Assembly (NCBI RefSeq): GCF_000014785.1
Contig: NC_008340.1
Coordinates: 2,580,001 to 2,612,000 of the forward strand
DNA length: 32,000 bases
Origin: Alkalilimnicola ehrlichii MLHE-1
GTDB taxonomy: Bacteria; Pseudomonadota; Gammaproteobacteria; Nitrococcales; Halorhodospiraceae
Direction of reading: 5' to 3'
Shown here: in pieces, positions 9,299-32,000 of the stretch
How the letters are laid out: the number at the start of each line of letters is the position of its first letter
Numbering within the stretch: the stretch's first letter is position 1
Notes under the pieces: generated by a model
Databases searched by the model: none
What the model saw: the letters and a program-made list of their open reading frames with translations, nothing else
What the model was told of the DNA's origin: nothing
Program-made: the position numbers and the translations under genes

Positions 9299-9684
9299 CG
9301 GGGGGTGGGTGTGGCGGGTGCCCTCCCCCTGGTCACTGCGAGCCCCCGACCCATCACCCGTCACTGCGAGCCCCCGACCCATCACCCGTCACTGCGAGCC
9401 CCCGACCCATCACCCGTCACTGCGAGCCCCCGACCCATCACCCGTCACTGCGAGCCCCGGAGGGGCGCGGCAGTCCACGCCAGGGTATGGATCGCCGCGT
9501 CGCTTCGCTCCTCGCGATGACGGGGGGTGGCGCCCCCACCGTCACTGCGAGCGCGGCCCCGCCCCCACCGTCACTGCGAGCGCGGCCCCACCCCCACCGT
9601 CACTGCGAGGAGGCGAAGCCGACGTGGCAGTCTACCGCCCTGGATCGCCACGGGCCTGCAGCCCTCGCGATGACGGGGAGGGGG
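9299..9684 (+). repeat. Repeat array A of the GTCACTGCGAG...CTCGCGATGAC hairpin family
   Basis: It fills the whole convergent spacer between the regulator and ppiD. Heads fall at 9332/9360/9388/9416/9444 (28-bp period, identical filler CCCCCGACCCATCACCC). A full hairpin unit spans 9444-9523. Further heads fall at 9541/9570/9599 (29-bp period), and a second full unit ends about 9677. Confidence 0.95.
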
Positions 9685-9695
9685 CGTAGGCCGCG

Positions 9696-11269: not shown

Positions 11270-11346
11270 TGGCGGAGCGGACGGGACTCGAACCCGCGAC
11301 CTCCGGCGTGACAGGCCGGCATTCTAACCAACTGAACTACCGCTCC
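11270..11346 (-). tRNA. tRNA-Asp (anticodon GTC)
   Basis: The reverse complement is GGAGCGGTAGTTCAGTTGGTTAGAATGCCGGCCTGTCACGCCGGAGGTCGCGGGTTCGAGTCCCGTCCGCTCCGCCA. This is near-identical to E. coli tRNA-Asp as I recall it, with anticodon loop CTGTCAC. Confidence 0.95.
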
Positions 11347-11359
11347 GGATTGTAACCCT

Positions 11360-11435
11360 TGGTGGGTGGTGAGGGGATCGAACCCCCGACATTCGCCTTG
11401 TAAGGGCGACGCTCTCCCAGCTGAGCTAACCACCC
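11360..11435 (-). tRNA. tRNA-Val (anticodon TAC)
   Basis: The reverse complement is GGGTGGTTAGCTCAGCTGGGAGAGCGTCGCCCTTACAAGGCGAATGTCGGGGGTTCGATCCCCTCACCACCCACCA. The cloverleaf folds by hand, with anticodon loop CTTACAA. Confidence 0.95.
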
Positions 11436-14535: not shown

Positions 14536-14557
14536 GCCCGGGTGGTGCTGGGGGGCG

Positions 14558-15012
14558 GGTGGATCGCCGCGTCGCTGCGCTCCTCGCGATGACGGGGAGA
14601 AACCCTCCGGCCCGCGCGATGACGGGGTGGTGGGCCCCCACCGTCACTGCGAGGAGTGGCCCCCAACCGTCACTGCGAGGAGTGGCCCCCAACCGTCACT
14701 GCGAGGAGCGAAGCGACGTGGCAGTCTACCCCTCTGGATCGCCACGGGCCGTCGGCCCTCGCGATGACGGGGGTGGTGCCCCCTGCCCCCGTCACTGCGA
14801 GCCCCGAAGGGGCGTGGCAGTCCATGCCGGGGTGTGGATCGCCGCGTCGCTTCGCTCCTCGCGATGACGGGGAGAAACCCTCCGGCCCGCGCGATGACGG
14901 GGTGATGGGCCCCCACCGTCACTGCGAGGAGGCGAAGCCGACGTGGCAGTCTACCCCTCTGGATCGCCACGGGCCTTCGGCCCTCGCGATGACGGGGGTG
15001 GTGCCCCGCGAT
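14558..15012 (+). repeat. Repeat array B of the hairpin family (clpX-lon spacer)
   Basis: Tail-only modules at 14558-14630. Heads at 14643/14669/14695 (26-bp period, filler GAGTGGCCCCCAACC). Full units run about 14695-14770, 14791-14870 and 14918-14995. Confidence 0.95.
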
Positions 15013-18587: not shown

Positions 18588-18674
18588 TGGTGCGAAAGGG
18601 GAGACTCGAACTCCCACGGGGTCGCCCCCACCAGGACCTAAACCTGGCGCGTCTACCAATTCCGCCACTTTCGC
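18588..18674 (-). tRNA. tRNA-Leu (anticodon TAG)
   Basis: The reverse complement is GCGAAAGTGGCGGAATTGGTAGACGCGCCAGGTTTAGGTCCTGGTGGGGGCGACCCCGTGGGAGTTCGAGTCTCCCCTTTCGCACCA. It has a long variable arm, and the acceptor stem GCGAAAG/CTTTCGC pairs. Confidence 0.9.
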
Positions 18675-19545: not shown

Positions 19546-20240
19546 GGACTGCCGCGCCCCCTTCGGGGGCTCGCAGTGACAGTGGAGGCACCACCCCCCG
19601 GTTATCGCGAGGGCCGCCACCTCCTCCCCGTCATCGCCAGGGCCGCCACCTCCTCCCCGTCATCGCCAGGGCCGCCACCTCCTCTCCGTCATCGCGAGGG
19701 CCGAAGGCCCGTGGCGATCCAGAGGGGTAGACTGCCACGTCGGCTTCGCCTCCTCGCAGTGACAGTGGGGGTACACCACCGCCCGTCATCGCGAGGAGCG
19801 CCCCTCCCCCCGTCATCGCGAGGGCCGAAGGCCCGTGGCGATCCAGAGGGGTAGACTGCCACGTCGGCTTCGCCTCCTCGCAGTGACAGTGGGGGTACAC
19901 CACCGCCCGTCATCGCGAGGAGCGCCCCTCCCCCCGTCATCGCGAGGGCCGAAGGCCCGTGGCGATCCAGGGCGGTAGACTGCCACGTCGGCTTCGCCTC
20001 CTCGCAGTGACAGTGGGGGTACACCACCGCCCGTCATCGCGAGGAGCGCCCCTCCCCCCGTCATCGCGAGGGCCGAAGGCCCGTGGCGATCCAGGGCGGT
20101 AGACTGCGACGTCGGCTTCGCCTCCTCGCAGTGACGGTGGGGGTGGGTCCCCGCTCGCAGCGACGGCGGGGCTTCCCCCGTCATCGCGAGGGCCGCCCCT
20201 CCCCTCGTCATCGCGAGGAGCGAAGCGACGCGGCGATCCA
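19546..20240 (-). repeat. Repeat array C of the hairpin family (inverted orientation)
   Basis: Tail micro-tandem at 19601/19630/19659/19688 (29-bp period). Four composite units follow with a 124-bp period (GTCATCGCGAGGGCCGAAGG at 19688/19812/19936/20060). Degenerate modules end at about 20240, 25 bp from the GIY-YIG stop. Confidence 0.95.
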
Positions 20241-20264
20241 TACGCCGCCCAGGACCGCCACGCC

Positions 20265-20552
20265 TTAAATGATGTCGTGATACAAATCCCGCCACCCCGG
20301 ATTCATTGACTCTATCAACCCCACCTTCCGATTCCGGTTTCCCGACTTCAACTGCTTCTCCCGGCCGATGGCCGATGTCATGGTTTCATGGACTTCATAC
20401 CACACCAGCCGATGCAGGCCGTACCGTCGGGTAAACCCATCCACAAAGCCGGATTTATGCTGCCAGACACGTTGCACCAGGTTGCTGGTGACGCCGACAT
20501 AAAGCGTGCCGTTCCGGCCATTGGTCATGATATAGACACAGGGTTGGTTCAT
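20265..20552 (-). CDS. Stand-alone GIY-YIG nuclease (URI domain, COG2827/YhbQ-like)
   Basis: 95 aa: CVYIMTNGRNGTLYVGVTSNLVQRVWQHK...GFTRRYGLHRLVWYEVHETMTSAIGREKQLKSGNRNRKVGLIE (GIY...YVG, catalytic R and E). A strong AAGGAGG lies 7 nt upstream. GC is visibly lower (one 60-nt line spot-counted at 52%). Confidence 0.9.
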   Translation of the reverse strand: MNQPCVYIMTNGRNGTLYVGVTSNLVQRVWQHKSGFVDGFTRRYGLHRLVWYEVHETMTSAIGREKQLKSGNRNRKVGLIESMNPGWRDLYHDII

Positions 20553-21390: not shown

Positions 21391-21673
21391 ACTGCACAGA
21401 GGGGCGTGGCAGTCCAGGCGGCGGGTGGATCGCCGCGTCGCTTCGCTCCTCGCGATGACGGGGGTGGGTGCCGCCCCCACCGTCACTGCGAGGAGGCGAA
21501 GCCGACGTGGCAGTCTACCGCTCTGGATCGCCACGGGCCTTCGGCCCTCGCGATGACGGGGGTGCCCCGTTCCTCGTTGATTCGGGCCCGCGCAGCGGGG
21601 AGGGGGGCTCGCGATGACGGGGTGGGTGCCGCCCCCACCGTCACTGCGAGCCCCGGAGGGGCGTGGCAGTCCA
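21391..21673 (+). repeat. Repeat array D of the hairpin family
   Basis: A degenerate head plus GGGGCGTGGCAGTCC...TGGATCGCCGCGTCGCTTCGCTCCTCGCGATGACGG, a full unit at 21481-21560, a tail-only module about 21608-21620, and a head plus half unit at 21639-21673. Confidence 0.9.
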
Positions 21674-21814
21674 GACCGAGGGCTATTGGCTGCGGCTACA
21701 AAACGCTTACGATCTGGAGGAGGCACGCCGCCACATGGCCGCATGAGCGGCAGCACCTGCTGCGCAGTTCACGGGCTTGTATTTAGCCCTGCTTCCGTTG
21801 CGCCTTGAAAGGCC

Positions 21815-23002
21815 TCAGATCTGCCGCAACGCACGCTCCAAATGCCCAAAGCCGATCCGCTCCTGTTCCAGCCTCAGGCAATCCTGCAGGGTATCTTCCC
21901 GCAGGTCCTGGAAAAGCGCCTGTTCCGCCTCGGTGAGTAGCGAAAGGCGCCCTGTGAACCGCTTGTTAGCCGGCTCCCGCCCCCACATCTCACGGTGCAT
22001 CTCCAACGTCTCGCGGTCCATGAGCAGGGATCGGGCGTGGGGCAGGCGGGTGCGCAGGCGGTGGAGCATGGCGAAGCCGTGGGTGTCGATATCGCCCCAG
22101 TAGTGGACCGCCACCTCCCGCAGCCAGCCAACCCCCGCCAACCGCTCCAGCCCATAGCCCAGACCGAAGATCACCAGGCCGCCCGGGTGGTCGGGGAAGG
22201 CCAGGCCATTGATCTCGTTCTCGGTGATGAAGACCCGGCGCACCGGCAGGCGCAGGTCGGCGAACTGTTCCGGGGGCACCGAGAGGTCGCTCAGCCCCTG
22301 CACGTAGAGGGCGGGGTCCAGCAACCGGAAGCGCACCAGCGCCGGCTTCTCCCGCAGCCCGAAACGCCGTTCGAAGCCCCGGGCGCCGGTGGCCGACGGG
22401 TCGATGGCGGCCTCGGGCAGCACCGCGTCCAACAACTCGGTGAACAGCCGGCGCCGGGCCTCGATGAACTTGGTGTCCACCCCGGGGATGTCCAGTTGCC
22501 GCAGATAGATACCGGGCCGGGGGTGGGCGCGGAACCAGTCCAGCACGTCCAGAATGCGCGGCCAGGCCCCGGCCTCCGCCAGCGCCTGCAGCGGCCGCCG
22601 GGCCAGCCAGTCTGCCAGCGACGGGAAGCGGCGCAGGGTCTCCCCGGCCAGCGCCCGAAAGCGGGCCGCCTCCCGCTCACGGCCGATCAGGCGCAAGCCG
22701 TCCGCCTCGCTCGGGACAATCGCCCCGGCGGGCAGGTCATTGGCCCCATGCACCCGGTGGTTCACCCGCCGCCACTCGATCCCGTAGCCGTACCCCCGCT
22801 CATCGCGGCTGCCGGCCTGAAGCTGCTGCACCCAACGGCGCACGGCGACGAAGTCCTCGGCCAGATCCCGGGAGGTGGGGCGGCGCAGCCGCAGCGTGAG
22901 CGGAAAGAGCGACTCGCCGCGCACATAGGCGGCCAGCCAATCGCCGCGCTCCCATTGGCGCAACAACTGCTGGCGCAGCTCGTCGGGTGTCGTCCAACTC
23001 AT
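21815..23002 (-). CDS. jetD: Wadjet JetD (DUF3322 plus Toprim/DUF2220 nuclease subunit)
   Basis: From the internal ATG at 23002 (ATGA overlap with the jetC stop): MSWTTPDELRQQLLRQWERGDWL... Toprim acidic motifs are VFITENEINGLAF and YWGDIDTHGFAMLHRLR. The track start at 23278 lies inside jetC and is rejected. Confidence 0.9.
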   Translation of the reverse strand: MSWTTPDELRQQLLRQWERGDWLAAYVRGESLFPLTLRLRRPTSRDLAEDFVAVRRWVQQLQAGSRDERGYGYGIEWRRVNHRVHGANDLPAGAIVPSEADGLRLIGREREAARFRALAGETLRRFPSLADWLARRPLQALAEAGAWPRILDVLDWFRAHPRPGIYLRQLDIPGVDTKFIEARRRLFTELLDAVLPEAAIDPSATGARGFERRFGLREKPALVRFRLLDPALYVQGLSDLSVPPEQFADLRLPVRRVFITENEINGLAFPDHPGGLVIFGLGYGLERLAGVGWLREVAVHYWGDIDTHGFAMLHRLRTRLPHARSLLMDRETLEMHREMWGREPANKRFTGRLSLLTEAEQALFQDLREDTLQDCLRLEQERIGFGHLERALRQI

Positions 23003-26000
23003 GGCGCGATACGCTGGCGGGCGGCCTTCTCCGCCTGGTACTCCGCAATGGTGAGATTGCGCACCATAGACTCGCGCCCCTCCACGTTGTGCACAAACCC
23101 CACGCTGGCCACGAAGGGCTCGATGATGTGGATCTTCTGCAACGGGGTGACGATCAGCAACTGCAGGTTCAACCGCTGGAACAGCTCCAGGCCGTAACGG
23201 GCGGACTCGTCCGAGCCGCGGCCGAAGGCCTCGTCGATGACCACGAAGCGGAACGAGCGCGAGCGGGTCTCGCCCCACTCCAGCCCGAACTGGTAGGCCA
23301 GGCTCGCGGCCAGCACGGTATAGGCCAGCTTCTCCTTCTGCCCCCCGGACTTGCCCCCGGAATCGGCGTAGTGCTCGTACTCGCTGTCGTCCTCGCGCCA
23401 GCGTTCGGAGGCGGAGAAGACGAACCAGTTGCGCACATCGGTGACCTTGCGGGTCCAGCGCCGGTCCAGGTCGGTGGTTCCCTCCCGGCCGCGGAAGCGC
23501 TCGATGATGGCCTTCACCTGCAGGAACTTGGCCTCGGAGTACTGATCGTCGTCCGAGCCGGTCACCGCCCCCTCGGTGCAGGCGCGCAGGCTCTGCTGAA
23601 AGTCGCGGATCTCCGCGTCCGGGGCGCTTTCCGCCATCAGGGTGATGTAACGGTTGTCGTTGTAGTCGATCTCACGCAGCGAGCGGTTGATGGTGCCGAT
23701 GCGCTCCAGGATCGCCTGGCGCTCCCGATGCAGCCGGCTCTGGAAGGCGGCCACCTCGCGGATGGTGTTTTCGTTGAGCAGCTCCTTGAAGCGGGCCTCG
23801 AAGCGGGGCAGATCATCTGCCTGCAACTGCTCGAGCATGGCGCGATAGTCGCCGGCGGCCTCGACGCTCACATCCACCTCCTGGCTGTCCAGCGGCCAGG
23901 CGTCCTGGTAGCGGCGCATGGCGTCGATGATGCGGTCGCGCAACTGCGCCAGGCGCTTGTCCTCCGCGTCGATCTTGCCCTGCAGCCATTCGCGCATGTC
24001 CTTCTCGCGGTTGTCGCAGGACTCCACCGTCAGGGTGTGCTCACCCAGGGCCTCGTCGCGCATGGCGGCCAGGCGCGGAAAGTAGGTCTGCTGCGCCTCT
24101 TCCGGTGTCGACTCCAACAGCGTGTGGCAATCCTGCCACTGGGCCCGGGCCTGCTCCTGTTTCAGCTCGTTGGCGCTGATCTCGCGATCCGCCTGGCGGA
24201 CCTCGCCCTCGACGCCCTTGATGGTCTTTTCCAGCTCATCCAGTTGCCGCTCCAGCGCCCGGAGCACGTCCGAGCCCTCGGCCAGCTCCCGGTACTCGCG
24301 CTCCAGCGCCTCAATGTCGGCAGCCAGCGGACGCCAGTCCAGGGCCTGAAAATCCTGGAACAGGGTCAGCTCCTGGATGGTGTCGCGGCGGGCCTCCTGG
24401 GCCCGCCGTTCGTCCTCCCAGCCACCGATGCGCTTGGCGATGGCCTGCATGCGCTCGGCCAGCCCGTCGGCCTCGGCCTCCAGCGCGGCGATCTTCGCCT
24501 CGTTGCTCCAGCCCAGCACATAACGGGTGCGGTCATCGATACGGTGGCGGTCGTCCTTCTCGTGGCGGCCACCGCCGGCCTTTATCTGCCCGGCACGGGT
24601 GATCGCCCGCTTCTCACGACGGAATTGCTGCAGATCGGTGCAGCAAGCGTAATCGAAGCGCTGCGCCAGCGCCTGCTCCAGCCAGGTATAAAACGCCGAC
24701 TCCGGCCGGATGGCCAGCTTGCGCACCAGCGAGTCGGCGTGCAGCGACGGCGGCGGCGCGTCGCGGGCTTCGCGCACGCGGTAGTAGACCAACCGCCCCC
24801 GCAACCGGGTGCGGTCCACCCACTCGGCGACGCGGGCGTAGTGGCTGTCGGGCACCAGCAGCGACAGGCCGAAGTTGTGCAGCACCCGTTCGATGGCGCC
24901 CTCCCAGTCGCGCTCGTCGTCACGCACCTGCAGCAGTTCACCGGCGAAGGGCAGGTCCTCGGCGGGCACCTCCAGCGCGCGGCACAGGGCGGTGCGGATG
25001 GCGAGGATCTCCGCCGGGATGTTGGAGCGTCGACCGCGCAGCGATGCCAGCTCGGCATCCAGGTCCTCGTGCCGCCCCTTGAGCTGGTGCAGCTCCACGC
25101 TGGCCTCCGTAATCCGGTTCTGCAGCTCGCTGCGGGCGGTCTCGGTGGCCTCGCGGGCCACGGTGAGCGCCTCGCGGTTGGCGTGAAAGACCTCGTCGCT
25201 GGTGGCATCGGGCAGCTCCAGCCGGTGCGCCAGCCGCCGGTAGCGCTCGGCCTTCTCGCTGCGCTCCGCCTTCTCCCGCCGCTTGCGCTCCAGCTCCGCC
25301 TTGATCCGCTCCAGGCGGTCGCCGCCGTTCTCGGCGATCGCCTGCTTGAGCTCGTCGCGCCGGGCCCGCTGCTCGGTGAGCCGAGTGCTCAGCCCCTCAA
25401 TGCGCTGCTGCAGCCGCTCGTGCTCCTGGCCCAGGTTGTCCAACCGGCGGTCCAGCAGCTCGGCCTTCAGCGAGGCGAACCAGGGCCGCAACGCCTGGCG
25501 GCAATCGCGCAGCTCCCGGGCCCGGGTGGCCCGTTGGTCGTGCTCGTCGGCATCGCGCACCAGGGGAATCAACTGCGCCACCTGCGACTTGGCCTTCAAC
25601 ACCGCCTCGTGGGCCCGGTTGAGGTCGTCGAAATGGCGGATCAGCGCCTCGATCCGCTCCTCGACGGGGAAGGCCTCCAGCATGTGACTGCGCACGAACT
25701 CGGTCAGGTTACCCACCGACTTCATGGAGACCGTCTGGTTAAAGAGCTCCAGGGCCTGCTCATTGTCGATGCCGAAGCGCCGCCGGAAGGCACCGCCGTA
25801 GGGCGGAAAGGTGTCGTACAACTCCACGTGGGGCAGCCCGCGCAGGCGCTTGCGCAGGTTGGCCAGGTCGGTGCCGAAATTGGCGAAGTGCTCGGCGATG
25901 TTCAGCGGGCGGTCGGCGACCACGAAAAACCGCGCCGGCTGGCCCTGGGTGTCCTTCATCCAGAAGACCTGGGCCAGGGTCACATCGTGGCCGAAGCCCT

Positions 26001-26391
26001 CGTTGTGGAAGTGGCCGAGGATGACCGAGTAGTTGTTATGGTCGCGCAGGCCCACCGGCTTGCTGGCCAAGCCGGCGTCGCTACGCTCCGACTTGTAGTA
26101 GCCGAGGACGTAAGAGCGCAGGCTGCGCTCCTTGGCCTCCGCGCCGGCGGCCTTGTTGTAGGTGATCCGCTGAGCCGGCACCAGCAGCGTGGTGATGGCG
26201 TCCACCAAGGTGGACTTGCCGGAGCCGATGTCCCCGGTCAGCAGGCTGTTGTCGCCGCCGGGCTGCAGCGACCAGACGCGGTCGTGGAAGGTGCCCCAGT
26301 TGAACACCTCCAGCCGCTGGAGGCGAAAACCGGTGCGCTGGTCGGAGCCGGCGAAATCCAGTCCCTGGGTTTCCATACGATGGGGTTCCAT
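22999..26391 (-). CDS. jetC: Wadjet JetC (SMC/MukB-like ATPase)
   Basis: 1130 aa from the ATG at 26391. It has FRLQRLEVFNWGTFHDRVW, Walker A LLTGDIGSGKSTLVDAI, a long central Glu/Arg/Leu-rich coiled-coil region, and Walker B FRFVVIDEAFGRGSD. Confidence 0.92.
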   Translation of the reverse strand: MEPHRMETQGLDFAGSDQRTGFRLQRLEVFNWGTFHDRVWSLQPGGDNSLLTGDIGSGKSTLVDAITTLLVPAQRITYNKAAGAEAKERSLRSYVLGYYKSERSDAGLASKPVGLRDHNNYSVILGHFHNEGFGHDVTLAQVFWMKDTQGQPARFFVVADRPLNIAEHFANFGTDLANLRKRLRGLPHVELYDTFPPYGGAFRRRFGIDNEQALELFNQTVSMKSVGNLTEFVRSHMLEAFPVEERIEALIRHFDDLNRAHEAVLKAKSQVAQLIPLVRDADEHDQRATRARELRDCRQALRPWFASLKAELLDRRLDNLGQEHERLQQRIEGLSTRLTEQRARRDELKQAIAENGGDRLERIKAELERKRREKAERSEKAERYRRLAHRLELPDATSDEVFHANREALTVAREATETARSELQNRITEASVELHQLKGRHEDLDAELASLRGRRSNIPAEILAIRTALCRALEVPAEDLPFAGELLQVRDDERDWEGAIERVLHNFGLSLLVPDSHYARVAEWVDRTRLRGRLVYYRVREARDAPPPSLHADSLVRKLAIRPESAFYTWLEQALAQRFDYACCTDLQQFRREKRAITRAGQIKAGGGRHEKDDRHRIDDRTRYVLGWSNEAKIAALEAEADGLAERMQAIAKRIGGWEDERRAQEARRDTIQELTLFQDFQALDWRPLAADIEALEREYRELAEGSDVLRALERQLDELEKTIKGVEGEVRQADREISANELKQEQARAQWQDCHTLLESTPEEAQQTYFPRLAAMRDEALGEHTLTVESCDNREKDMREWLQGKIDAEDKRLAQLRDRIIDAMRRYQDAWPLDSQEVDVSVEAAGDYRAMLEQLQADDLPRFEARFKELLNENTIREVAAFQSRLHRERQAILERIGTINRSLREIDYNDNRYITLMAESAPDAEIRDFQQSLRACTEGAVTGSDDDQYSEAKFLQVKAIIERFRGREGTTDLDRRWTRKVTDVRNWFVFSASERWREDDSEYEHYADSGGKSGGQKEKLAYTVLAASLAYQFGLEWGETRSRSFRFVVIDEAFGRGSDESARYGLELFQRLNLQLLIVTPLQKIHIIEPFVASVGFVHNVEGRESMVRNLTIAEYQAEKAARQRIAP

Positions 26392-26393
26392 GC

Positions 26394-26993
26394 TCACTGC
26401 CCGTCGCCGGCGGTAGTGGTGGCCTCGGCGTGCTCGCGGTACTCGGCCAGGCGCTGGTCGAACTCCGCCAGCCACTGGGCGTCGATATAGGCCTTGATGA
26501 TCCGGCGCACCTCGTACTGATTATCCTGCCCGCGCAGCCGGCGCAGGAAACCCAGCTCCACCACCTTGTTGATGTCCGCGTGCACCCGGTCCACCAACTT
26601 CGCCTCGTTGGCGCTGGCCGGCAGGAAGACACGGATCAGCTCCACGATCTGCTCCCGCGAGAGGATCAGCCGCGGGTCGCCGCCGCCGGCATCGTGCTCC
26701 ACCAGCTTCTTGCGCAGCAGCGCCAGCAGCAGGCTTACCGGGTAGGTGAGCTGGCGGCGCGGCACCAGCCGGGGCAGCTCCGGCTCGTCCTCGGCGGGGG
26801 TCCGCTGGCGCAGGCAGGCGTGGCCCTCGGCCTCGTCCAGCATCAGCTCCAGCCCGAGCACGGCCACGTGGTCGCGCACCCGCGCCTGGTGGTCCTCAAG
26901 CACCTGCCAGTAGCGAGGGTTCTGGTCCTTGTACAGCACACCCTTGAACAGGGTGATCAGCATGGCCGAGAAGTCGGCGTCCTGTTCGCTCAT
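26394..26993 (-). CDS. jetB: Wadjet JetB (DUF4194, kleisin-associated KITE-like subunit)
   Basis: 199 aa from the ATG at 26993: MSEQDADFSAMLITLFKGVLYKDQNPRYWQVLEDHQARVRDHVAVLGLELMLDEAEGHACLRQ. This pattern, the size, and the position between jetA and jetC are all as in JetB. Confidence 0.85.
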   Translation of the reverse strand: MSEQDADFSAMLITLFKGVLYKDQNPRYWQVLEDHQARVRDHVAVLGLELMLDEAEGHACLRQRTPAEDEPELPRLVPRRQLTYPVSLLLALLRKKLVEHDAGGGDPRLILSREQIVELIRVFLPASANEAKLVDRVHADINKVVELGFLRRLRGQDNQYEVRRIIKAYIDAQWLAEFDQRLAEYREHAEATTTAGDGQ

Positions 26994-26997
26994 AGGC

Positions 26998-28434
26998 TCA
27001 ACGGCAGAAGATAACCTGCGGTAGCGTGGCGCTGCGGGCAACGCCGTCACGGTCGCGCCAGTATACGGTCTGCTGGCGGGTTTCATCGATCACGCTGCGG
27101 TGATCCTCTGTGGCCAGGGCCAGGTAGACCACCAGTTCGGCCAGGCCCTGCTCCAGCGGGTGTTGCTCCAACAGGGCCGCCAGGCTGATCTGCTCGCGGG
27201 TCTGCAGCGCCCGGCGCACCTGCCCTTGCAGCCGGGTGCGGTCCACGTAGGCCTGGTCGAACAGCGCCGCCACGTCGCCCTCCGCCTCGCCCGCCTCCAG
27301 CACCTGCTGCTCGATGCGCGGCGTAACCGGCGGACTGAAGAGCGGGCGCTCCATGGGCAGCTCCACCCGGGGCGCGGGTTCGTCCAGGGCCATGGTGAAA
27401 TCCCGGGGCGGGGCTTCCCGCAGGTGCAGGGCCTGCTGCTCCAACTCGCGGATCAGCCCCATGATGCGGCGGTTCTCCAGCCAGGCCTGATCGTCCAGAT
27501 AGCGGCGCAACTGCTCGGAGAGCCGCGCCACCACCCGCTGGGTGTGCTCGCCCGCCGCCAGCCAGTCGTAATGGATGCGGGCCAGGGTCGGGTCGGGCGC
27601 CACCTCGGTCACGGGCTCGAGCGCCAGGGTGCGCTCGAGCAGTTCGGTCAACTCCTCCTGGCGAGCCGGGGACATGAGCAGATCCCAGAAGGCGCGGAAG
27701 CTGCGGCCCTGGTCGGAATCGGCGATGCGGTCGTGCTCGCCGAAGACCTGGTCGAGGATATCGCCCTTGCCGCCCTCCCAGGTGGCCACCTGCTCGCGCA
27801 CCTGGCGGTCCAGCGCGCGGAAGTTGGCCTCCACCTGGCGGAAGTCCCCCAGCAGCCCGCGGGCCGTGTCGGCCATCTGCAGAAAACGCTCGCGCAGGCG
27901 GGTGGGGTCCATCAGGTTCAGGTGCCCGGCCCGCACCTCGTCGATCTCGCGCTCGATGGCGTCGCGCCGCGCCTCCAGATCGCGCAGGCGGGCCTCCGGG
28001 TCGGTCTCCGCCCCCTCCACGATCTGTTTCAGCAGATCAAACACCAGGGTGAGCCGCGACTCCGCACCGATAAAGTGGGCCTGCTCCAGGCCCGCCAGCC
28101 ACTGGATCGCCTGCTCGGTGGCCGGGGTGAGGTCGTAGTGGGGTTCGTCGCTGTGCTGCGGGTAGTACTTGCGCAACCAACCGCGCTCATCGGCAGCCCA
28201 ATATGCCAGGTACTCGTGAGCGCCCTGCTGGTAGGCCTCGTCACCCAACCGGGCGCGCAGGTGGTAGAGGTAGTCCTCCAGCGCATTCTCCAGCTCCGAG
28301 GCCGGCAGCGCCCGCACGTTGGGCACCACGAAACAGCGGTGCAGAAAGGCCACGACCATCGGCGCGTTACCGGCCTGCAACAGGCGCCACCCCGGATGGG
28401 TGCGCCGCAGGCTGTATAGGTGATCGTGATCCAT
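26998..28434 (-). CDS. jetA: Wadjet JetA (DUF3375, kleisin-like subunit)
   Basis: 478 aa: MDHDHLYSLRRTHPGWRLLQAGNAPMVVAFLHRCF...LEDYLYHLR...YLAYWAADERGWLRKYY. It is the first gene of the four-gene operon. Confidence 0.88.
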   Translation of the reverse strand: MDHDHLYSLRRTHPGWRLLQAGNAPMVVAFLHRCFVVPNVRALPASELENALEDYLYHLRARLGDEAYQQGAHEYLAYWAADERGWLRKYYPQHSDEPHYDLTPATEQAIQWLAGLEQAHFIGAESRLTLVFDLLKQIVEGAETDPEARLRDLEARRDAIEREIDEVRAGHLNLMDPTRLRERFLQMADTARGLLGDFRQVEANFRALDRQVREQVATWEGGKGDILDQVFGEHDRIADSDQGRSFRAFWDLLMSPARQEELTELLERTLALEPVTEVAPDPTLARIHYDWLAAGEHTQRVVARLSEQLRRYLDDQAWLENRRIMGLIRELEQQALHLREAPPRDFTMALDEPAPRVELPMERPLFSPPVTPRIEQQVLEAGEAEGDVAALFDQAYVDRTRLQGQVRRALQTREQISLAALLEQHPLEQGLAELVVYLALATEDHRSVIDETRQQTVYWRDRDGVARSATLPQVIFCR

Positions 28435-28470: not shown

Positions 28471-28499
28471 AGGTGGCCGGGCCTCGGCCTATGACGGCG

Positions 28500-29265
28500 T
28501 GTGGATCGCCGCGTCGCTGCGCTCCTCGCGATGACGGAGGGGTGGGTGCCCCCCACCGTCACTGCGAGCGCGGATCCGCCCCCACCGTCACTGCGAGGAG
28601 CGAAGCGACGTGGCAGTCTACCCCTCTGGATCGCCACGGGCCTCCGACCCTCGCGATGACGGGGGGTGTTACCCCACCGTCACTGCGAGGAGGCGAAGCC
28701 GACGTGGCAGTCTACCCCTCTGGATCGCCACGGGCCTCCGGCCCTCGCGATGACGGGGGGTGTTGCCCCCACCGTCACTGCGAGGAGGCGAAGCCGACGT
28801 GGCAGTCTACCCCTCTGGATCGCCGCGGGCCTCCGGCCCTCGCGATGACCGGGGGGTGTTGCCCCCACCGTCACTGCGAGGAGGCGAAGCCGACGTGGCA
28901 GTCTACCCCTCTGGATCGCCACGGGCCTCCGGCCCTCGCGATGACGGGGGGTGTTGCCCCCACCGTCACTGCGAGGAGGCGAAGCCGACGTGGCAGTCTA
29001 CCCCTCTGGATCGCCGCGGGCCTTCGGCCCTCGCGATGACGGGGGGTGTTGCCCCCACCGTCACTGCGAGGAGGCGAAGCCGACGTGGCAGTCTACCCCT
29101 CTGGATCGCCGCGGGCCTTCGGCCCTCGCGATGACGGGGGGTGTTGCCCCCACCGTCACTGCGAGGAGGCGAAGCCGACGTGGCAGTCTACCGCCCTGGA
29201 TCGCCGCGGGCCTCCGGCCCTCGCGATGACCGGGGGGAAAGCCTCCGGCCCTCGCGATGACGGGG
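28500..29265 (+). repeat. Repeat array E of the hairpin family (type array, 95-bp units)
   Basis: Heads GTCACTGCGAG at 28558, 28587, 28679, 28774, 28870, 28965, 29060 and 29155. Seven near-identical full units have periods of 92-96 bp. Two tail-only modules close the array at about 29265. Confidence 0.97.
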
Positions 29266-29390: not shown

Positions 29391-30575
29391 ATGTTAAGCG
29401 ACCAAGACCTGCTTGAACGCCTACGGAACGGGGAGTCCCGTCGGGTGGAGTTCAAACCCTCCACGGCGCAAAATACCGCGATCCGGAGGGCCATCTGTGC
29501 ATTCGCCAACGATCTTGATGGGCAGGGCGAGATCGGCGTGATCTTCGTGGGGCTCAACGATGACGGGACCTGCAAAGGGATCGAACATCCAGACCGCGAC
29601 CAGAAGAAGCTATCCGACTGGGCCTTGGGGGGCGACATCCTCCCCCTTCCTGACGTGGAAATCGGTTATCGCGAGCTGGACGGTTGCCCTGTCATAGTCG
29701 CCGAGATACGCCCCCACCAAGAACCCCCGGTACGCTACCAGGGCCAGGCGTGGGTCAGGGTTGGCACCACCAACCGCCGCGCTACTCCGGAACAGGAGAG
29801 ACGTTTGGCGGAGCGACGGCGGGGCGGAGACCTTCCCTTCGACCATCGGCCGGCCCCCGGCGCCAGTCTTGATGACCTCGATCTGAGGTACTTCGAGCGC
29901 GAGTACCTGCCCAATGCCGTCGCACCGGAGGTCCTGGAAGAGAACAACCGTAGCATCGAAGATCAACTCAACGCCCTCAGGTTTCTCACCCAGGGCCAAG
30001 TCAACCACGGTGCTCTGCTCGTCCTGGGGCACGACCCGACCGCCTATATACCGGGGGCCTACGTGCAGTTCCTACGCATCGACGGAACCGAGCTGGGCGA
30101 CCCCATCAAGGACGAAAAGAGACTGACCGGCAACCTGCCCGAGGTCATGGCGCAGCTGGACGAGTTGTTGGAGGTGCACATCCAGGTTGCTGTCGACATC
30201 GAGGCCGGATCACGGGAGCAGCGCCAGCCCGACTACCCCGTTGTTGCCTTGCAGCAACTCACCCGGAACGCCCTCATCCATCGCGCCTACGAAGGCAGCC
30301 ACGCGCCGGTCCGCGTCTATTGGTTCAGAGACCGGGTGGAAATTCAGAACCCCGGCGGACTCTACGGCCAAGTCACCACCGACAACTTCGGTCAGGGTGT
30401 CACCGATTACCGCAACCCCCTGATAGCAGAAGCCATGCATATTCTCGGCTACGTACAGAGATTCGGGTTCGGCATCCCATTGGCACAGCGCCACCTGCGG
30501 GAAAACGGCAACCCCGACCCCGATTTTCAGTTCGCGCCAGAGTTCCTGGCCGTCACCGTGAGGGCAGTGACGTGA
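29391..30575 (+). CDS. Schlafen/AlbA_2-domain protein with a C-terminal HATPase_c_4-like domain (COG2865-like), no terminal wHTH
   Basis: The N-terminal motif set is LLERLRNGESRRVEFKPS...AICAFANDLDGQGEIGVIFVGLNDDGTCKGI. The C-terminal segment is QLTRNALIHRAYEGSHAPVRVYWFRDRVEIQNPGGLYG...YRNPLIAEAMHILGYVQRFGFGIPL. Domain names come from motif memory, not from a search. Confidence 0.85.
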   Translation: MLSDQDLLERLRNGESRRVEFKPSTAQNTAIRRAICAFANDLDGQGEIGVIFVGLNDDGTCKGIEHPDRDQKKLSDWALGGDILPLPDVEIGYRELDGCPVIVAEIRPHQEPPVRYQGQAWVRVGTTNRRATPEQERRLAERRRGGDLPFDHRPAPGASLDDLDLRYFEREYLPNAVAPEVLEENNRSIEDQLNALRFLTQGQVNHGALLVLGHDPTAYIPGAYVQFLRIDGTELGDPIKDEKRLTGNLPEVMAQLDELLEVHIQVAVDIEAGSREQRQPDYPVVALQQLTRNALIHRAYEGSHAPVRVYWFRDRVEIQNPGGLYGQVTTDNFGQGVTDYRNPLIAEAMHILGYVQRFGFGIPLAQRHLRENGNPDPDFQFAPEFLAVTVRAVT

Positions 30576-31543
30576 TAACCATTGCCTTCTTCAACAACAA
30601 GGGTGGCGTCGGCAAGACTGCTTTGGTCTACCATTTGGCCTGGATGTTCGCCGATCAGGGCCGGTCCGTGCTCGCCGCGGACCTGGACCCCCAAGCCAAC
30701 CTCTCCACCATGTTCCTGGACGAACAAAGCCTGGAAGGCTTCTGGCCGGAGGGGGACAGCACGCATACCGTACTCTCACCCATACGCCCACTGCTGGAAG
30801 GCGAAGGCGGCATCGAAAGCCCTCATGTTGAGCCCATCGAGGACCTAGGCCTGCTGGTCGGAGACCTGGCCCTGTCCGGCTTCGAGGACGAACTCTCCCA
30901 GCAATGGCCCCGCTGCCTGGACGGCGAGAAGCGGGCCTTTCGCATCATCGGCGCCTTTGCCGAAGTCATCCAACGTGCCGGCGCCAACCGGGAAGCCGAC
31001 CTGGCGCTGGTGGATGTCGGCCCCAACCTGGGAGCCATCAATCGTGCCGCACTCATTGCCGCAGATTATGTGGTCGTGCCCCTGGGGCCGGACCTCTTTT
31101 CCCTGAAGGGACTGCAAAACCTGGGCCCCACCCTCCGACGGTGGCGTACGGACTGGCGCAAGCGGCTGCAGGAATTACCCACCAATGTACAAGCCCCATC
31201 GGGGCAAATGACGCCGATCGGTTACGTGGTCATGCAGCATTCCGTCCGACTTGACCGGCCGGTCAAGGCGTATGGCAAATGGATGGACCGGATCCCCAGC
31301 ACTTACCACCGTTACGTCCTCGACAAACCGGACGCTGCCAACCTGCGTGTCGACGACGACAGCGAATGTCTGGCTGCATTGAAGGACTATCGGAGCCTGA
31401 TGCCCATGGCTCAGGAAGCCCGCAAGCCCATGTTTCACCTCAAACCGGCGGACGGCGCCATCGGCTCCCACGTCCGTGCGGTACAAAACTGCTACAAAGA
31501 TTTCCGGGACCTGGCAGCGGCTATCGACAGCCGCACGCAGTGA
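30572..31543 (+). CDS. Orphan ParA/MinD-superfamily ATPase with a C-terminal extension
   Basis: GTG at 30572 overlaps the upstream TGA (GTGA). Motifs are VITIAFFNNKGGVGKTALV (deviant Walker A), LAADLDPQANLS and DLALVDVGPNLG. The next in-frame ATG would remove the Walker A, and the track ATG at 30320 would overlap the upstream gene by about 250 nt. Confidence 0.85.
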   Translation: MITIAFFNNKGGVGKTALVYHLAWMFADQGRSVLAADLDPQANLSTMFLDEQSLEGFWPEGDSTHTVLSPIRPLLEGEGGIESPHVEPIEDLGLLVGDLALSGFEDELSQQWPRCLDGEKRAFRIIGAFAEVIQRAGANREADLALVDVGPNLGAINRAALIAADYVVVPLGPDLFSLKGLQNLGPTLRRWRTDWRKRLQELPTNVQAPSGQMTPIGYVVMQHSVRLDRPVKAYGKWMDRIPSTYHRYVLDKPDAANLRVDDDSECLAALKDYRSLMPMAQEARKPMFHLKPADGAIGSHVRAVQNCYKDFRDLAAAIDSRTQ

Positions 31544-32000
31544 CGGTGGGGGCACCCCCCGTCATCGTGATGAGTGCAGGCCCTCCCCCCGGCATCGCGA
31601 GGGCCGAAGGCCCGTGGCGATCCAAGGCGGTAGACTGCCACGTCGGCTTCGCCTCCTCGCAGTGACGGTGTGGGCAACACCCCCCGTCATCGCGAGGGCC
31701 GAAGGCCCGTGGCGATCCAAGGCGGTAGACTGCCGCGTCGGCTTCGCCTCCTCGCAGTGACGGTGTGGGCAACACCCCCCGTCATCGCGAGGGCCGAAGG
31801 CCCGTGGCGATCCAAGGCGGTAGACTGCCACGTCGGCTTCGCCTCCTCGCAGTGACGGTGGGGTAACACCCCCGTCATCGCGAGGGCCGAAGGCCCGCGG
31901 CGATCCAGGGCGGTAGACTGCCACGTCGGCTTCGCCTCCTCGCAGTGACGGTGGGGGCAACACCCCCCGTCATCGCGAGGGCCGAAGGCCCGCGGCGATC
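31543..32000 (-). repeat. Repeat array F of the hairpin family (inverted orientation, runs off the window end)
   Basis: Tails G(T/G)CATCGCGAGGGCCGAAGG fall at 31591, 31686, 31781, 31874 and 31969 (period 93-95 bp). The reverse complement of a unit is near-identical to array E units, including the linker GGGGGGTGTTGCCC. Confidence 0.95.

Follow-up and report, generated by a model that had tools for sequence, protein, structure and literature searches.

Dimers of bipartite CGTC-tagged hairpins in Alkalilimnicola ehrlichii are probable recognition sites of an Ssn-type GIY-YIG nuclease

Introduction

CGTC-tagged repetitive extragenic palindromes (REPs) were defined as a superfamily, with the families CGTC-1 to CGTC-4, by Di Nocera, De Gregorio and Rocco (2013, BMC Genomics 14:522; PMC3733652). 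Their stems, 8-9 bp long, start with A-T, their loops measure 4-5 nucleotides (nt), and they end in a CCA tail; they occur mostly as inverted dimers and span five phyla, including dRS3 of Neisseria and RPE-4/6 of Rickettsia. They were concluded to lack a dedicated enzyme, with no transposase flanked by CGTC repeats, and Alkalilimnicola lay outside that analysis (PMC3733652). Chenal et al. (2025, Nat Commun 16:2388; PMC11893778) reported genes of small single-domain GIY-YIG nucleases of about 94 residues, SsnA (cd10448), flanked by repeats called NTS (CGTCATTCCCGCGMAVGCGGGAATCYRG) or, in the wider sense, Ssn-related motifs (SRMs). SsnA binds the hairpin as single-stranded DNA (ssDNA) only and cuts a few nt upstream of it, ignoring double-stranded DNA (dsDNA) and RNA; sequence and structure are both required, whereas the identity of the loop is not, and the enzyme reduces transformation by DNA that carries NTS. 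The ssnA gene was present in 81% of genomes with more than 200 SRM, and the NTS-ssnA-NTS unit was likened to an insertion sequence and to RAYT/REP. The experimental work covered Neisseria, N. elongata, N. wadsworthii, and Wolbachia (PMC11893778). Here we analyzed a stretch of 32,000 nt from the genome of Alkalilimnicola ehrlichii MLHE-1 (NC_008340.1, positions 2,580,001 to 2,612,000 of the forward strand; hereafter the window), which carries many copies of a tagged hairpin repeat, here named the GCGAG class after its core, together with a homologue of ssn.

A preliminary description of this DNA, made from its letters, knew of no formal description of the repeat. That statement does not hold, because CGTC-tagged REPs (PMC3733652) and the NTS/SRM repeats of Ssn nucleases (PMC11893778) had already been described, and the system in the window is a member of this Ssn/SRM kind, described in 2013 and 2025. 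Judged from sequence comparison, what appears to be new is a hairpin architecture that escapes the published motif, a putative cognate Ssn subclade with a candidate specificity signature, and runs of half-sites.

Abundance and architecture of the repeat

The core GTCAYYGCGAG had 63 exact matches on both strands of the 32 kb, whereas dinucleotide shuffles gave an expectation of 0.20 (largest shuffle, 2); the repeat unit and core pointed out in the preliminary description were thus confirmed. Every match sat in one of six intergenic arrays. The 76-nt unit quoted in that description was present at 14694-14769 as CGTCACTGCGAGGAGCGAAGCGACGTGGCAGTCTA-cccctc-TGGATCGCCACGGGCCGTCGGCCCTCGCGATGACG. It was one tail-to-tail A(+)/B(-) dimer of hairpin modules, with the tags facing outward and the tails separated by about 6 nt:

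14694-14728, plus strand: module A, with a CGTC tag, an ACTGC/GCAGT basal stem, a GAG...CGTG internal loop, an apical GC-GAA-GC mini-hairpin, and a CTA tail
14735-14769, minus strand: module B, with a CGTC tag, an ATCGC/GCGAT stem, a GGCC-GNC-GGCC apical hairpin, and a CCA tail

The general form of module A in the window was CGTC-ACTGC-GAG-[apical hairpin]-CG(T/C)G-GCAGT-C(T/C)A, and that of module B was CGTC-ATCGC-GAG-[apical hairpin]-CG(T/C)G-GCGAT-CCA. The GCGAG-class module as a whole, 29-45 nt long, consisted from 5' to 3' of an unpaired (C/T)GTC tag, a 5-bp basal stem A(T/C)(T/C)GC, an internal loop, an apical stem, and an unpaired C(C/T)A tail. The internal loop was conserved as GAG on the 5' side and G-N-R on the 3' side, and the variable apical stem was closed by a GNA-type triloop. 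Apical parts varied among copies with self-complementarity kept (GC-GAA-GC, GGC-GAA-GCC, CCCC-GAA-GGGG, and GGCC-GAA-GGCC), and the basal stem was of the ATTGC, ATCGC, ACTGC, or ATTAC type, with the matching 3' arm in each case. Two positions left unconstrained by the search were conserved as well: 276 of 290 modules had C or T immediately before GTC, and at least 275 had a tail beginning with C, CCA being the most frequent tail. Tag and tail, both unpaired, stayed conserved while the stems changed. A hairpin detector, which required GTCA followed by a stem of 5 nt or more and, after 3-45 intervening nt, its reverse complement, gave 62 matches in the window and about 10 in random sequence of the same first-order composition. 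About 46 of the 62 were true complete modules, all within the arrays, and 11 further copies were orphan heads, consisting of the tag and 5' arm only.

The fold was examined by covariation in 82 distinct 35-nt modules, taken from the window and from many unrelated contigs. Compensatory double changes were found at all five apical pairs, and the apical covariation score was 0.265 as against 0.094 in shuffles, none of 500 of which reached the observed score. The proposed structure paired 88% of the cells in this alignment, compared with 23-55% for controls in a slid register, and the cells left unpaired were mostly tandem G.A/A.G. Mini-hairpins of the d(GCGAAGC) type (GC-GNA-GC) are classic DNA hairpin motifs, and d(GCGNAGC) mini-hairpins and tandem G.A pairs have an unusual stability in DNA that is badly captured by nearest-neighbor parameters. 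A hammerhead or other ribozyme, suggested by GUC and GAG...CGAA, was rejected by inspection, since the modules lack the hammerhead core and their 3' triplet is not constant (GAA, GCG, GTG).

Module B and the ATTGC type showed all the features that define CGTC REPs, namely the CGTC/TGTC tag, A-T at the first two stem positions, the CCA tail, and inverted dimers; module A departed from them, its first stem positions being A-C and its tail CTA. As with CGTC REPs, inverted dimers predominated, heterodimers were frequent, and the repeats were intergenic and widely spread among phyla. However, the families CGTC-1 to CGTC-4 have an 8-9-bp stem and a 4-5-nt loop, whereas the window modules have a 5-bp stem followed by an internal loop and an apical hairpin. 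The GCGAG class is set apart by this description and by the published lists of intragenic peptides (VIPAKAGI/DSRFRGND, VIAGLDPAI/DGRVKPGHD, VIPWLDHGI; PMC3733652), from which it is absent. With the SRM/NTS repeats the window shared an unpaired CGTC(A) tag orienting the hairpin, a C-C-A-type tail, high copy number, clusters bracketing genes, a single-domain GIY-YIG gene of about 95 amino acids (aa), and the SRM-ssn-SRM layout. In the canonical NTS, a perfect stem of 8 bp (ATTCCCGC) closes a loop of 4 nt, whereas the window modules combine the 5-bp basal stem with a GAG/GNR internal loop and a variable apical stem-loop. A literature search on four literal core strings returned unrelated primers only.

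The dimer-of-hairpins form resembles that of REPINs, and the outer GTCAYYGCGAG and CTCGCRRTGAC ends look like terminal inverted repeats. The units might therefore be REPINs mobilized by a RAYT (Y1/HUH), or miniature inverted-repeat transposable elements (MITEs) moved in trans by a DDE transposase through 11-nt terminal inverted repeats. REP/BIME elements and REPINs with RAYT (IS200/IS605-type Y1) do resemble the system in the window: their short tagged hairpins form inverted doublets around a short spacer, repeats of the same kind lie on both sides of a small nuclease gene, and, as is proposed here for Ssn, the hairpin is recognized in ssDNA. However, their tag is GTAG and not CGTC, their enzyme is an HUH/Y1 transposase and not a GIY-YIG nuclease, and the proteins are without homology. 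No Y1 or other transposase gene or domain was found among the genes of the window, and in the published survey no transposase was flanked by CGTC repeats (PMC3733652). Nor did 127 isolated dimers show target-site duplications at their flanks, where 5 direct 2-nt matches were counted and 7.9 expected; these flanks were inverted over only 1-2 nt, corresponding to the tag itself. For want of such duplications the MITE reading was rejected, and mobilization of the units by a transposase of either kind is, in our judgment, very improbable.

The ssn gene and its cognate hairpins

The ssn homologue of the window lies 5.5 kb from the flagged 76-nt unit:

20265-20552, minus strand: ssn homologue, encoding a 95-aa single-domain GIY-YIG protein, its ATG preceded at 6 nt by an AAGGAGG ribosome-binding site

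The predicted protein was exactly identical to an annotated GIY-YIG nuclease family protein of A. ehrlichii MLHE-1 and contained PF01541 as a single domain. It showed 60.2% identity over 93 aa (E=8e-31) with the homologue of N. gonorrhoeae that is flanked by canonical NTS. The catalytic-type residues Y7, Y18, R28, E65, and N84 were invariant in the family alignment, and Y7, Y18, and E65 were checked across 43 homologues. These three were equated with the catalytic Y6, Y17, and E64 of N. meningitidis SsnA, the one-residue offset being inferred from a tblastn alignment. The AlphaFold2 model (pLDDT 93.4) had a GIY-YIG fold, nearest to UPF0213 BH0048, UvrC-N, and Slx1. A PDB sequence search with the protein found distant UPF0213 and UvrC relatives only and no Ssn structure, and an NCBIfam search gave no specific family name. 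The sequence comparisons place the window protein in the Ssn GIY-YIG family. Of the two kinds of partner that the preliminary description had proposed, the GIY-YIG nuclease is borne out by this gene, which adjoins the third array described below, and the Y1 transposase is not, none being present in the window.

To relate the gene to the hairpins beyond the window, 80 genome loci of ssn homologues were used, which had been fetched with the family alignment; this sample is biased in favor of proteins related to that of the window. In 76 of these loci, from many phyla, the ssn gene had one or more GTCA-tagged hairpins within 300 nt. The density of such hairpins was 5.5/kb near ssn and 0.55/kb farther off, compared with about 0.3/kb in random sequence. 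In the commonest layout, the ATG was preceded at 10-25 nt by CGTC-hairpin-CCA and the stop codon was followed at 8-20 nt by TGG-hairpin-GACG, so that the ssn gene formed the spacer of a tag-outward dimer. Within 500 nt of ssn, a pattern-type SRM was found at 50 loci, the GCGAG class only at 18, and neither at 12; in this biased sample, the GCGAG class accounts for 18 of the 30 loci that the published SRM pattern leaves without a motif.

The identity of the protein followed that of the hairpin. At residue 71, all 19 Ssn proteins accompanied by GCGAG-class hairpins had G and all 56 accompanied by 8-bp stems had W; residue 75 was R or K beside the former hairpins and W beside the latter. The corresponding motifs were EKQLKxGxRxRK for the GCGAG class and KxWxRxWK for the 8-bp NTS type, and the window Ssn carries G71 and R75. 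The nearest protein neighbor shared the hairpin class in 73 of 75 cases (permutation p=0.0002). The Ssn proteins of Planktothrix and Spirosoma (W71, K75) were intermediate and were paired with other GAG-class stems. This co-variation between protein clade and hairpin class fits a cognate recognition pair. In the model, residues 71 and 75 lie at the break after the E65-bearing helix and in the next helix, positions from which they may contact DNA, and the split between G71/R75 and W71/W75 is a candidate specificity determinant. The preliminary description had suggested that conservation of the core across distant genomes would point to recognition by a conserved protein; the association with ssn in 76 of 80 loci and the co-variation of clade and hairpin lend support to this view.

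Homologues of 60-82% identity were found in Proteobacteria, SAR202/Dehalococcoidia, Gemmatimonadota, Latescibacterota, Nitrospina, and Bipolaricaulota. Ssn proteins from metagenome-assembled genomes (MAGs) of Chloroflexota/Dehalococcoidia, Gemmatimonadota, Latescibacterota, Nitrospina, and Bipolaricaulota showed 60-72% identity to the gammaproteobacterial protein. Such identity across phyla is far above the expectation for vertical descent and therefore implies horizontal transfer of the gene with its hairpins. The occurrence of homologues 60-75% identical in very distant phyla, indicating horizontal spread, is equally what one would expect if the hairpins were autonomous REP-like elements and the GIY-YIG gene a homing-endonuclease-like parasite inserted in the spacers of pre-existing REP dimers, truly associated with the repeats but neither making them nor using them for the host. 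The typical position of ssn, exactly in the spacer of a tag-outward dimer, and the distance of most repeat copies from any ssn also speak for such a parasite. It agrees poorly with the almost perfect co-variation of protein clade and hairpin class, with the carriage of ssnA by 81% of genomes that have more than 200 SRM, and with the measurable effect of SsnA on transformation of NTS-bearing DNA (PMC11893778). We consider a parasitic origin unlikely, and it and recognition of the hairpins by Ssn are not mutually exclusive.

Three further ssn loci were recorded. On plasmid p1 of Planktothrix agardhii, the ssn gene (locus coordinates 401-685) lies between a type IIL MmeI restriction-modification gene and the DISARM gene drmA, with GTCATTCTGAG...GAAGAATC hairpins and runs of their half-sites on its flanks. 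On plasmid pNL2 of Novosphingobium aromaticivorans, ssn (locus coordinates 383-709) has CGTC-GCCCCGTG-CTTGA-CACGGGGC hairpins on both sides. With an 8-bp stem, whose first positions are other than A-T, and a 5-nt loop, they agree in the size of stem and loop with the family CGTC-2 of Di Nocera et al. (2013). The record NZ_CP119140.1, a 2.17-Mb N. gonorrhoeae sequence filed as a plasmid but evidently a chromosome, carries an ssnA homologue and canonical NTS.

Repeat arrays and neighboring genes

The six arrays, to which no strand is assigned, were as follows:

9304-9692: array 1, between convergent GntR-type and SurA-like genes, with 4 complete modules
14554-15008: array 2, from the clpX stop to the lon start, with 8 distinct complete modules (four A/B dimers), including the flagged unit
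19548-20240: array 3, directly 3' of the ssn gene, with 3.9 copies of a 124-nt unit made up of an A/B dimer and an additional half-site
21399-21682: array 4, between a TauE-family gene and jetD, with 4 complete modules and 1 orphan head
28496-29265: array 5, between jetA and a Schlafen/AlbA_2 gene, with 7 copies of a 95-nt A/B dimer unit (97% matches)
31536-32000, running off the window end: array 6, a 95-nt dimer unit in at least 4.4 copies

The A/B dimer was thus reiterated every 95 nt in arrays 5 and 6 and every 124 nt in array 3. A ninth, longer detector match in array 2 (14669-14725) nests around the module at 14695. The final module of array 3 (20207-20237) ends 28 nt past the ssn stop codon and has the TGG-hairpin-GACG orientation relative to the gene. 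Array 6 is inverted relative to array 5, with 94-98% complementarity over up to 279 nt, and the pair brackets two genes, a Schlafen AlbA_2/HATPase_c_4 gene and a ParA-like AAA_31 gene (window 29391-31543). Between arrays 4 and 5 lies a Wadjet-like jetABCD operon:

21815-28434, minus strand: Wadjet-like jetABCD operon
26998-28434, minus strand: DUF3375 gene
26394-27086, minus strand: DUF4194/MksE gene
22999-26475, minus strand: SMC-like JetC gene
about 21815-23002, minus strand: JetD gene

The repeat-gene-repeat arrangement here encloses an anti-plasmid defense system. Rfam at gathering thresholds over the window returned three tRNAs only, none within a repeat array, and no known RNA family matched the repeats:

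11273-11346, minus strand: tRNA gene
11363-11435, minus strand: tRNA gene
18591-18674, minus strand: tRNA gene

The location of the arrays also bears on the possibility that the hairpins act chiefly in RNA, as terminators, attenuators, or 3'-end stabilizers of mRNA, functions proposed for classical REPs. All six arrays are intergenic, four of them at gene 3' ends, and REPs lie mostly downstream of coding regions (PMC3733652). However, array 5 lies between divergent genes, arrays 2 and 4 are upstream of lon and the TauE gene, and no T-runs follow the hairpins. The conserved unpaired CGTC tag and C(C/T)A tail would be irrelevant to terminators, the apical GC-GNA-GC mini-hairpins are of a type known from DNA, and Rfam gave no match. 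The RNA version of the hairpin, moreover, is not bound by SsnA (PMC11893778). A role mainly in RNA is accordingly quite improbable.

Peptides that the preliminary description had regarded as translation artefacts of the repeat were recovered. HCEERSDVAV occurred twice, SPRRFAPRDDG three times, and VASLLAMTG three times in the six-frame translation of the window, and the shorter forms RHCEE, ALAMTG, FGPRDDG, and SLRG occurred 12-23 times each. Peptides derived from the repeat were also present in a spurious open reading frame (ORF) at 19813-20295.

Half-site runs and copy-number change

Directly upstream of complete hairpins we found runs of half-sites, in which the CGTC tag, the 5' stem arm, and 15-18 nt of filler were repeated two to five times with a period of 26-29 nt. 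In the window they were located at the following positions:

9332-9458: half-site run in array 1, 28 nt repeated 4.5 times, 100% identical
9531-9609: half-site run in array 1, 29 nt repeated 2.7 times
14633-14708: half-site run in array 2, 26 nt repeated 3 times
19589-19703: half-site run in array 3
20160-20216: half-site run in array 3

Outside the window, such runs recurred in unrelated lineages, in Marinospirillum, Chiayiivirga, a low-GC proteobacterium, and three Chloroflexota loci, and with both hairpin classes. Among 391 modules, duplication of the 5' half was seen in 33 and of the 3' half in 9, with controls at 7-8; some of the 33 were whole head-to-tail modules. Tandem arrangements are not mentioned in the main text of the Ssn paper (PMC11893778). 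A CRISPR-like array was rejected as an explanation, since within the 26-29-nt runs the "spacers" do not differ from one another.

A second A. ehrlichii genome (CP184336.1) was compared with the window. The flanking genes were 99.7-99.9% identical in three aligned blocks and 97.3% identical in the fourth and last, and CP184336.1 was shorter by 84, 95, and 251 nt exactly at three of the arrays (window about 9374-9416, 14913-14974, and 19896). The difference of 84 nt equals three 28-nt half-site units, that of 95 nt one dimer, and that of 251 nt is close to two 124-nt units (248 nt). These length differences indicated recent copy-number change at the arrays.

Distribution of the GCGAG class

A pattern search of the kind proposed in the preliminary description, here with GTCAYTGCGAG and CTCGCRATGAC separated by N40-70, matched at least 120 contigs of a viral collection, where a rough estimate of chance matches is about 1. 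A low-GC relative, GTCATTGCGAG...GAAGCAATC ... GATTGCTTCG...CTCGCAATGAC, occurred in bulk among these contigs, whose matches had the architecture GTCATTGCGAG-[hairpin]-CG(AA/CG/TG)GCAATC-spacer-GATTGC...CTCGCAATGAC at a contig GC content of 0.36-0.73. The preliminary description had placed the GC-rich unit tentatively in one family with the GTCATTGCGAG/CTCGCAATGAC hairpins of distant genomes, and this was upheld: an identical architecture occurred in contigs over this range of GC content, in Alpha-, Beta-, Gamma-, and Deltaproteobacteria, and on cyanobacterial plasmids.

GCGAG-class repeats were found in Thioalkalivibrio, Marinospirillum, Chiayiivirga, and Pseudomonadales among the Gammaproteobacteria, in Thiobacillus and Nitrosomonas among the Betaproteobacteria, and in Sphingorhabdus, Novosphingobium, Erythrobacter, Allosphingosinicella, Bradyrhizobium, Xanthobacteraceae, and Rhodospirillales among the Alphaproteobacteria, as well as in one deltaproteobacterial MAG. 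They were also present on plasmids of Methylosinus, Methylocystis, Novosphingobium, Legionella, and Halomonas and on plasmids of the cyanobacteria Calothrix, Aulosira, Trichormus, and Tolypothrix. Of the phyla named in the preliminary description, cyanobacteria were thus correct. For Bacteroidota, the exact core was not confirmed: the phage database gave three unverified gut contigs with the full module, its other matches being partial, and the ssn gene of Spirosoma is flanked by a related GAG-class hairpin with another basal stem (GTCATCCCGAG..GGGATC). The ssn gene of the cyanobacterium Planktothrix is likewise flanked by another GAG-class stem (GTCATTCTGAG..AGAATC). The occurrence of the GCGAG class across phyla holds for Proteobacteria and Cyanobacteria. 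A protein-seeded scan of the viral contigs for Ssn homologues found none.

Discussion

We consider it likely that the repeats are dimers of CGTC-tagged REP-type hairpins, a bipartite-hairpin subclass of SRM, which fold in ssDNA and are bound and cut on the 5' side by the cognate Ssn; the hairpin pairs of the window probably serve as recognition sites for the Ssn encoded beside array 3. Whenever the DNA becomes single-stranded, in uptake, conjugation, replication, or repair, each module would fold, and the cognate Ssn would bind the tag and hairpin, reading both sequence and structure. It would then cut the single strand a few nt 5' of the tag, with dsDNA and RNA not serving as substrates. The steps of folding and cleavage are proposed for Alkalilimnicola because of the published enzymology of SsnA from Neisseria and Wolbachia (PMC11893778). 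The expected outcome would be restriction of ssDNA that carries the repeats, or modulation of its recombination. Arrays bracketing genes would limit the integration of incoming ssDNA that carries arrays, and the bracketed genes, here the Wadjet operon and the Schlafen/ParA pair, would be those most affected.

Several observations weigh against this interpretation. In the window, a module is present only on the 3' side of the ssn gene, and with six arrays per 32 kb the adjacency of ssn to an array is by itself weak evidence. At several GCGAG-class loci (L150, L200, and L216), the flanking modules are irregular or reversed in orientation. Among the at least 120 repeat-bearing loci of the viral collection, 1 of the 120 listed also encodes an Ssn homologue, 4.7 kb away, and a linkage of each repeat copy to a nuclease gene was rejected on this count. 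The published SRM pattern, HGTCWYN(0-2)YYVSBRHN(0-5)WNVSBRGN(0-2)RNCYNB, gave no match in the window and none in 290 distinct GCGAG-class modules; as a positive control, it matched 85 of 124 canonical modules near ssn genes. As to the fold, the pairing of the basal stem was built into the search pattern and is not independent evidence, and nearest-neighbor DNA folding gave the modules unremarkable stability (z = +0.3, -1.1, and -0.3), compared with z = -4.3 for the canonical 8-bp NTS hairpin and -2.2 for the whole flagged dimer. Since thermodynamic folding fails to separate the modules from shuffles, support for the fold rests on covariation. Finally, to our knowledge Alkalilimnicola is not known as naturally transformable, which puts its physiological source of ssDNA in question.

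As to the origin of the copies, it is plausible, as a hypothesis only, that the repeats proliferate from an insertion sequence-like SRM-ssn-SRM unit. That Ssn itself generates or spreads the repeats is likewise hypothetical, and we know of no strand-transfer chemistry for GIY-YIG enzymes. More tentatively, and with greater doubt than belief on our part, the hairpins with the GAG internal loop and the G71/R(K)75 clade may form a distinct specificity class in which residues 71 and 75 read the stem, the half-site runs arising from Ssn cleavage 5' of the tag followed by slipped resynthesis.

For annotation, recognition of the GCGAG class removes spurious ORFs and false C-terminal extensions (HCEE.., ..LLAMTG, ..APRDDG/APRNDG) in Proteobacteria and Cyanobacteria. 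No site-specific nucleases other than Ssn proteins are known to cut only ssDNA, and those who described them have proposed them as tools. This use depends on a catalogue of enzyme-site pairs, to which the window adds a candidate pair, a 95-aa enzyme with two natural site variants whose architecture is invisible to the published SRM search pattern. In A. ehrlichii, the Wadjet operon with its bracketing arrays conforms to the repeat-gene-repeat layout by which transformation is limited in Neisseria. If the half-site runs do result from cleavage and slipped resynthesis, they would provide the first mechanistic clue to how CGTC repeats multiply.

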